DNA of 64,000 nt, from assembly GCA_951406725.2 (NCBI GenBank), contig OX597826.1, positions 55,304,001 through 55,368,000 of the forward strand. The letters run 5' to 3'. This stretch comes from Octopus vulgaris (taxonomy: Eukaryota). The stretch's first letter is position 1. Every line of letters starts with the position of its first letter. Positions 16,228 to 16,663 of the stretch are shown in pieces. A program made the position numbers and the translations under genes. Below the pieces are notes generated by a model, which was given only the letters and a program-made list of their open reading frames with translations, ran no database searches and was not told the origin of the DNA.

Positions 16228-16663
16228 AGAAATATTAAAATTACTAAGTCACTCTAAAAGAGATTACGGCGGCGTTACTGGAAATGAATTGTTATCGCCA
16301 TATTAATATGGCAGTCTTATAGATATAAGACTAAAAGCTGTCGCTGATTAGCTCCATGAGGCCATCGCCTTAAGATAGCTATTTGACACACAAACTGTGT
16401 CCATTATAACCTTCGAACAAGGGAGGTCAGCCGCTTCACACTGCCAGTCAGACAGCTACAGACGCGTTTCAGGGTATTTGCCCTTTGTCAATGTAGCGTA
16501 GTCGACCCAGCAGGTGTCGCCACTGATCATCTCTGTTCGAAGGTTTTATTTACCTAGTTTCGGTGGAATACATCCACTTGTTTGATGGCCTCATGGAGCT
16601 AATCAGCGACAGCTTTTAGTCTTATATCTATAAGACTGCCATATTAATATGGCGATAACAATT
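16228..16663 (-). mobile_element. Solo Penelope-like terminal repeat (family 2) with 80-bp perfect inverted repeat and hammerhead motif, inserted in (TA)n
   Basis: 16287-16366 and 16584-16663 are reverse complements. Central hammerhead motif; ~60-nt extension at 16228-16286; (TA)n on both sides. Confidence 0.72.
16455..16497 (-). ncRNA. Minimal type-I hammerhead ribozyme motif (two core substitutions)
   Basis: Revcomp reads gctaca-TTGACAA-aggg-caaata-ccct-GAAACGCGTC-tgtagc: 6-bp stem I, stem II, palindromic stem III and GUC site. Core is UUGACAA instead of CUGANGA. Confidence 0.72.

Follow-up and report, generated by a model that had tools for sequence, protein, structure and literature searches.

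A 364-nt tandem repeat with a U3-A8 hammerhead motif in Octopus vulgaris: a likely non-LTR retrozyme with Penelope-type insertion marks

Introduction

We analyzed a 64-kb stretch of the Octopus vulgaris genome (hereafter the window) and examined in particular an element at positions 16228–16666. We are highly confident that this element is one copy of a dispersed, non-coding 364-nt tandem unit with a fixed U3-A8 hammerhead motif, likely a non-LTR retrozyme, the RNA of which would be reverse transcribed into (TA)n by the reverse transcriptase (RT)/GIY-YIG protein of a Penelope-like element (PLE). The original prediction, made from the window alone, described a rod-like element of about 380 nt and proposed either a solo PLE pLTR or a non-autonomous retrozyme or viroid-like RNA. 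The retrozyme reading is borne out at the level of the family: the repeats show the sequence hallmarks of non-LTR retrozymes, namely a short (about 170–400 nt) non-coding monomer in tandem (units of 364 and 362 nt, up to 8 in a row) and one type I hammerhead per unit, identified by motif and covariation rather than by Rfam.

Results

Layout of the window copy. With the unit numbered on the + strand and the hammerhead-bearing RNA read from the − strand, the long arm of the insertion (16228–16583, −) covers unit positions 1–356; it begins at start site A and stops 8 nt short of the end of the unit. The short inverted arm (16584–16666, +) begins at start site B and covers unit 57–139. The 56 nt between site A (unit 1) and site B (unit ~57) form a "tail" that is present in the long arm only (16228–16283, −). 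The 80-bp inverted repeat between the two arms (16287–16366/16584–16663) is perfect, as claimed, and can be extended to 83 bp (16284–16366/16584–16666) with a single mismatch at 16286; an RNA transcribed across this locus would fold into a hairpin of 83 bp. Since the window reads unit 1–356 and then 57–139 on the opposite strand, a single insertion event produced the 380-nt rod, which was wrongly taken for the element; the true unit has 364 nt and repeats head-to-tail, and of this unit the window contains 356 nt, followed by part of a second copy in inverted orientation. Copies elsewhere in the genome match unit 1–356 at 94–99% and then run through 8 more nucleotides into the next unit. Treating the inverted repeat as a family feature was also mistaken: it is specific to this locus, and its 80-bp arm is a second copy of the unit. 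Nor does its perfection point to recent formation, because the repeats that make up a single insertion in this family show an average divergence of 2.0–2.5%; at this divergence 80 bp are expected to stay unchanged about one time in five.

Several smaller features could be confirmed in the sequence. The 12-bp stem (16408–16419/16534–16545) closes a predicted rod of about 140 nt (16408–16545, −) that extends stem I of the hammerhead and bears this motif at its tip. The side hairpin 3′ of the rod (16385–16401, −) is conserved in distant families, and the one 5′ of the rod (16563–16577, −) is found in both the sequence and the single-unit fold. Two palindromes noted within the repeat are adjacent hairpins of the unit RNA (16297–16332, −). 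The 16-nt palindrome (16297–16312) is indeed perfect; the 20-nt one (16313–16332) is an 8-bp stem with a 4-nt loop and 90% self-complementary. Both sit just upstream, in the sense of the RNA, of a predicted 23-nt single-stranded stretch that contains start site B. The element contains no ORF, as anticipated, no LTR and no constant terminal repeat. It is inserted within (TA)n, again as described, with a left target tract at 16130–16227 and a right flank at 16667–16678 that is compatible with a target duplication of about 12 bp but uninformative, as it is pure TA.

The surrounding DNA contains several SINE-like repeat copies to the left (14878–16079; repeat families D9, D10, D12 and D13) and a degenerate AT-rich repeat with a periodicity of about 10 nt to the right (16836–17523; D7 and D11). 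A weak tRNA match (30 bits; 50643–50704, −) is likely a SINE head. A 295-aa frame (24697–25584, +) resembles what we take to be the C-terminal part of a non-LTR retrotransposon, with zinc knuckle and restriction-like endonuclease, and a fragment at 59385–59777 (−) resembles what is presumably an RTE-type reverse transcriptase.

Folding of the element returned z scores of about −24 for each strand. Most of this, however, is contributed by the inverted copy. A natural single unit scores −7.6 as a linear molecule and −6.4 as a circle (40 shuffles), and is predicted to be branched, with the ~140-nt rod as one of its parts. A rod-like, viroid-like RNA of about 380 nt finds no support, given that the 364-nt unit is predicted to be branched and that the 80-bp arm is locus-specific. 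We rejected a viroid-like RNA also on the grounds that the unit carries a hammerhead of one polarity and that DNA copies with marks of retro-insertion are abundant.

The hammerhead and its core. The type I motif predicted on the − strand was found at 16497–16455 and consists of a 6-bp stem I, the core UUGACAA, a 4-bp stem II, GAAA, CGCG and UC, with a palindromic stem III (A-CGCG-U). U3 lies at 16491, A8 at 16486 and C17 at 16461; cleavage is predicted after C17, between 16461 and 16460. The assignment is based on motif, covariation and co-folding: Rfam detected no hammerhead in the element at either the gathering or the E ≤ 10 threshold, and a motif scan of the window returned one other match, a low-complexity A/T stretch.

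The unusual core had been considered either decayed or a compensatory variant. With positions 3 and 8 left free, U3-A8 recurs in 97 of 97 exact motif matches; it is present in 37 of 38 aligned copies and, in the wider set of 1,763 matches, in 97 of the first 100 matches listed. Such fixation is not random variation, and we rejected core decay on this basis. Together with covarying relatives, it establishes the U3-A8 core as a fixed compensatory variant, the ribozyme activity of which is a prediction from sequence. A search of the genome for the C3-G8 pattern gave 2,168 matches (417 in the control). One of these C3-G8 families is homologous to the unit (61% over unit 1–274, E 5e-9), and a second relative is a 359-nt tandem family with the same layout as the 364-nt unit. 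For covariation analysis we used 16 hand-picked related units. The 3–8 pair is CG in nine and UA in seven of them, all six pairs of stem I show changes on both sides, and the center of stem III is GC, UA, AU or CG, complementary in every case. In the 16-row alignment the side hairpin at 16385–16401 is paired in 96.6% of cells, with two pairs changed on both sides; the 12-bp stem is paired in 59.6%, in a region where distant families align poorly.

Modeling suggests how this motif might operate. Two copies are predicted to co-fold through the palindromic stem III into a double-hammerhead arrangement, and the best predicted fold of the monomer would be inactive, with the GAC of the core paired to the GUC cleavage triplet and the core thereby blocked.

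This odd core is already in print and is not new. U3-A8 hammerheads occur in the Cercyon PLEs of Schistosoma (Cervera and de la Pena 2014, PMC4209133), and 3–8 covariants are stated to have been shown active in vitro already (Perreault et al. 2011, PMC3088659). The octopus motif resembles the Cercyon hammerheads in its compensatory 3–8 pair and in a short palindromic stem III suited to dimers. It differs from the Schistosoma and Perreault examples in that the motif with 6-bp stem I and 4-bp stem II lies inside a long rod, and in that the variant is fixed in about 1,700 near-identical copies alongside homologous C3-G8 families.

Family size and arrays. The genome searched comprises 2.8 Gb. With the element as query, the best 40 of 3,129 candidates contained at least 149 matches; a looser pattern gave 1,798 matches (81 in the control) and a tighter pattern 1,763 (7 in the reversed control). 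The window subfamily repeats its 364-nt unit head-to-tail. Its sister subfamilies, with units of 362 nt, are larger, with arrays of up to 8 units and arms of up to 2,733 nt. In the window subfamily 55 of 145 arms are longer than one unit, and the cleavage site is crossed twice in 8. Before counting we removed 12 duplicate loci and, in addition, locus L108 as an apparent duplicate of L107. These two loci (G000:C29) lie 0.6 Mb apart in opposite orientation with an identical insertion structure; several C29 matches of another family are also repeated, and L107/L108 are likely a segmental duplication or an assembly duplicate. We also encountered further hammerhead repeat families of about 360 nt with C3-G8 cores and the same layout of side hairpin and tail (L217–L241, L231–L237, L168, L222). 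One C3-G8 family (359 nt) includes an inverted array whose ends are separated by about 49 nt. Contigs of four public runs (X1, X2, X5 and X15) contain family variants, and those of two runs contain the 8-nt unit joint, although contigs can neither separate tandem DNA from circles nor reveal expression. Among the public runs checked, none on record as RNA contains the stretch.

The divergence between units bears on the nature of the template. In the sister subfamilies, divergence is 0.63% among units of the same arm, 1.0% between opposite arms and 5.7% between units at different loci; the corresponding values for the window subfamily are 2.5%, 2.0% and 3.8%. Instead of a circle, the same PLE enzyme could have copied an uncut, linear read-through transcript of a genomic array, with a slow or conditional hammerhead. 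We regard this as possible but rather unlikely. It would agree with the behavior of an anole PLE in vitro, for which uncut RNA is the main substrate and cleavage is not needed (PMC11167929), with the existence of arrays of 5–8 units as possible sources, and with the inactive predicted fold of the monomer. However, copying from a fixed start can only shorten arrays, so that long arrays need a generator; units within an arm are far more alike (0.63%) than units at different loci (5.7%); and the core and stems are retained with compensatory changes across families.

Start sites and inverted arms. The 104 loci of the window subfamily (55 single, 45 head-to-head and 4 complex) provide 145 arms, the lengths of which are biased, since loci were picked for a hammerhead or a near-full unit. 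Arm starts cluster at unit 1–3 (site A, 78/145) and at unit 55–63 (site B, 58/145), 56 nt apart, and the far ends fall almost anywhere. Because the sampling is biased toward hammerhead-bearing loci, we also took 30 matches chosen just 3′ of the cleavage site. Of these, 27 continue past the site, one arm ends exactly at it, and two others end at 222 and 227. Arm ends also cluster at unit 180–200, 260–280, 320–340 and 20–40, near predicted stems, as if the RT stalls there; the peak at 260–280 is partly a selection effect.

Arm lengths differ at all loci except one duplicated pair. The 80-bp inverted repeat is thus not common to all copies: 55 of 104 loci have no inverted arm, and the others vary. 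This variation bears on the idea that the copies are a DNA satellite or a MITE-like DNA transposon in which the hammerhead arose by chance or has decayed, which we consider extremely improbable. Inverted ends, a target duplication, TA targets and tandem arrays are what such an element might show, but more than half of the loci lack an inverted arm, the arms are of variable length, copies have a ragged end opposite a fixed one, and the hammerhead covaries. Constant terminal inverted repeats, named in the original prediction as the sign of a DNA transposon, are absent, and we rejected this candidate. Since the inverted repeat varies from copy to copy, it is likely the insertion scar of a Penelope-type retrotransposon enzyme.

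To the head-to-head junctions of the window subfamily we added those of 47 sister loci. The resulting 81 junctions comprise 63 of type A+B, one B+B, no A+A and 17 with one unclassifiable end; A+B pairing thus accounts for 63 of the 64 inversions in which both ends are classifiable. Most flanks are (TA)n. A word of at least 8 nt other than (TA)n occurs at both ends of 16 of 62 A+B loci (shuffled flanks: mean 3.6, maximum 7 in 200). It is exactly 12 bp long in 8 of the 16, which indicates a target duplication of about 12 bp at non-repetitive targets, with the caveat that several of the 16 words are TA or AAT runs plus one extra letter.

The two arms of an insertion tend to carry the same sequence variants. 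In the sister subfamilies they agree at 206 of 212 informative sites, compared to 3,176 of 23,539 (13.5%) in the control; in the window subfamily they agree at 72 of 107, compared to 1,019 of 20,153 (5.1%). Gene conversion between arms could raise this sharing. In 2 of 13 well-informed loci of the window subfamily the arms mostly disagree. At one locus (L148:944–3909) an eight-unit arm is followed by a same-strand segment from site B with a different stem II variant, possibly a switch to a second RNA template. Given the two disagreeing loci and the L148 variant, some insertions used two templates or changed later.

The inverted arm might instead have arisen by fold-back self-priming of a single cDNA, or from an antisense template (PMC3846280), with trimming at B. 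We consider this unlikely. The B arm lies within the A arm at 26 of 63 loci, including that in the window, and the A arm within the B arm at 9 of 63, as fold-back would produce; junction overlaps of 1–5 nt at 33 of 63 loci, a figure inflated by alignment extension, fit as well. At 28 of 63 loci, however, neither arm is contained in the other (for example, A 1–34 with B 57–276), and each holds sequence that the other cannot supply. Furthermore, junctions differ at every locus, so the inverted arms were not copied from an inverted source. The proposal that the inversion corresponds to the inverted 5′ copy of Penelope-type insertions is upheld. The family displays the marks of PLE-type insertion, namely a tail at one end, an inverted truncated copy, a short target duplication and a microsatellite target, and is likely mobilized by a Penelope-like element.

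Candidate driver. A search for GIY-YIG proteins, in which 150 of 6,136 candidates were scored, gave at least 148 matches, 16 of them in intact 781-aa frames. This frame contains RT and GIY-YIG domains with a CX4CXXC motif before the nuclease, which by PMC8557442 points to the Neptune or Nematis type. The corresponding young PLE (L137–L145, e.g., G000:C17:42762500–42768000) has two 3′ ends separated by 38 nt, targets (TA)n and carries a U3-A8 hammerhead-like motif, the stem I of which is weak, with only 2–4 bp; both of the inverted loci seen have one long and one short end. The young 781-aa PLE is a plausible mobilizing partner. Its tail differs in length from that of the unit (38 vs 56 nt). 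We found no DNA homology to the unit in 40 PLE loci, where the sole match was a retrozyme copy lying separately next to the end of a PLE, nor in 9 full-length PLE loci. Since the young PLE and the unit share no detectable DNA, the partnership is unproven. The tail of a C3-G8 family, used as query, returned that family alone and no PLE. Other PLE families are present in the genome at 35–65% protein identity.

These data also speak to the reading of the copies as solo pLTRs or 5′-truncated stubs of an autonomous PLE. We consider this very unlikely, even though all insertion marks of the family are PLE marks, Xenopus retrozymes resemble pLTRs (10.64898/2026.07.22.740005), and the PLE search scored only part of its candidates. 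The 55 of 145 arms longer than one unit join units head-to-tail, wrapping from unit 364 to unit 1, without coding sequence and never into a shared one, and a solo pLTR as the main reading is not supported. An RT plus GIY-YIG ORF between pLTRs was not found in 222 retrozyme loci. The check for copies that flank such an ORF came out negative, with none of the 222 joined to a PLE ORF within a flank of ~1.2–1.5 kb; PLE-protein similarity lies within reach in three of them and is joined to the unit in none.

Other observations on the PLEs are as follows. In the PLE loci L140 and L144 the main frame is preceded and overlapped by another open frame (401 and 479 aa, respectively), which is unusual for a single-ORF PLE. 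A second PLE family (~45% protein identity; L165, L166, L167, L169 and L176) has two 3′ ends separated by about 30 nt, together with a minimal hammerhead-like motif in which, by eye, pair 15.2–16.2 is G-C instead of C-G. Retrozyme copies and PLE fragments adjoin across (TA)n tracts at L135, L187, L063 and L168, which fits a shared target preference.

Discussion

By its sequence, the element likely represents a new family of animal non-LTR retrozymes, for which cleavage and circles are predicted. It resembles published animal non-LTR retrozymes (PMC7229834; 10.64898/2026.07.22.740005) in its non-coding monomer of the 170–400-nt class, its occurrence both in tandem and as dispersed copies, a single type I hammerhead in each unit, a GC content below 45% and PLEs in the same genome. 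It differs in its U3-A8 core. The two fixed starts, the A+B inversions and the ~12-bp duplication were not found in the available text of these two sources. Cleavage and circles have been shown for the published elements and are predicted for the octopus family. Homology to pLTRs was described for 24 of 57 Xenopus retrozyme families (10.64898/2026.07.22.740005), and none was found for the octopus unit. An active retrozyme copy has been defined by at least two consecutive complete hammerheads (Li et al. 2026, 10.64898/2026.07.22.740005); the window locus contains one, and other loci of the family contain two or more in succession. In the literature searched on octopus retrozymes and Penelope hammerheads, we found no account of the 364-nt family.

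With PLEs (PMC3846280, PMC8557442, PMC11167929) the family shares the one-end tail, the inverted truncated copy, two adjacent RT starts and the hammerhead, as well as AT-rich or (TA)n targets with a short target duplication, although the duplication is 8–10 bp in rotifers and ~12 bp here. The tail has 56 nt, compared to 30–40 nt in published PLEs. Unlike endonuclease-bearing PLEs, the octopus unit has no RT/GIY-YIG ORF, and the whole element is the repeating monomer. The one-end tail, the inverted copy and the short duplication are already in print for PLEs (PMC8557442, PMC3846280).

Published work on PLEs and retrozymes provides the elements of a mechanism. In an anole PLE, two adjacent internal RT starts define the tail, both target strands are cut and extended, and the protein is predicted to be dimeric (PMC11167929). 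The PLE tail is found at one end only, and the mechanism that generates tandem, inverted and tailed PLE insertions has been called unresolved (PMC8557442). Circles of animal retrozymes have been shown, with PLEs as candidate partners (Cervera and de la Pena 2020, PMC7229834); in vitro, eight of nine Xenopus retrozyme dimers failed to cleave (Li, Clavereau and Pollet 2026, 10.64898/2026.07.22.740005).

We propose that multi-unit loci would be transcribed, that paired hammerheads with a palindromic stem III would excise monomers, and that ligation would close these into circles. An AT-rich target would be nicked by a PLE protein, which probably acts as a dimer, with the nicks in the two target strands spaced by about 12 nt. 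Of the two target 3′ ends, one would start cDNA synthesis at site A and the second at site B, most probably with a single RNA as template for both. Each RT would travel a variable way round the circle, and the two cDNAs would be joined, often via an overlap of 1–5 nt. The core of this scheme, in which the subunits of a dimer that nicks 12 nt apart start at A and B of one circle, both roll round it and their cDNAs join, is a serious but tentative proposal that could well fail. In the literature searched we found no description of such two-site twin priming. Applied to the window copy, the scheme would have priming at A yield the arm of 356 nt and priming at B that of 83 nt, which would account for the inverted repeat. 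As this copy comprises less than a full unit and a single hammerhead, it would not be able to free a monomer on its own and is likely a dead end.

The value of the family lies in its record of a mechanism more than in the element itself. The mobilization of retrozymes by PLEs has so far rested on co-occurrence and pLTR homology; the approximately 1,800 short, young copies described here add counts, including A+B pairing in 63 of 64 classifiable inversions, a target gain of ~12 bp and arms derived from the same RNA variant. Nearly half of the inverted cases exclude fold-back, and the two-site twin-priming model is testable with a small RNA and one protein. If the model is true, a single mechanism would produce the PLE tail with its one-sided asymmetry as well as the inverted copy and the tandem arrays, and the 364-nt circle together with the co-resident 781-aa protein would constitute a minimal test system in which passenger and driver share no homology.
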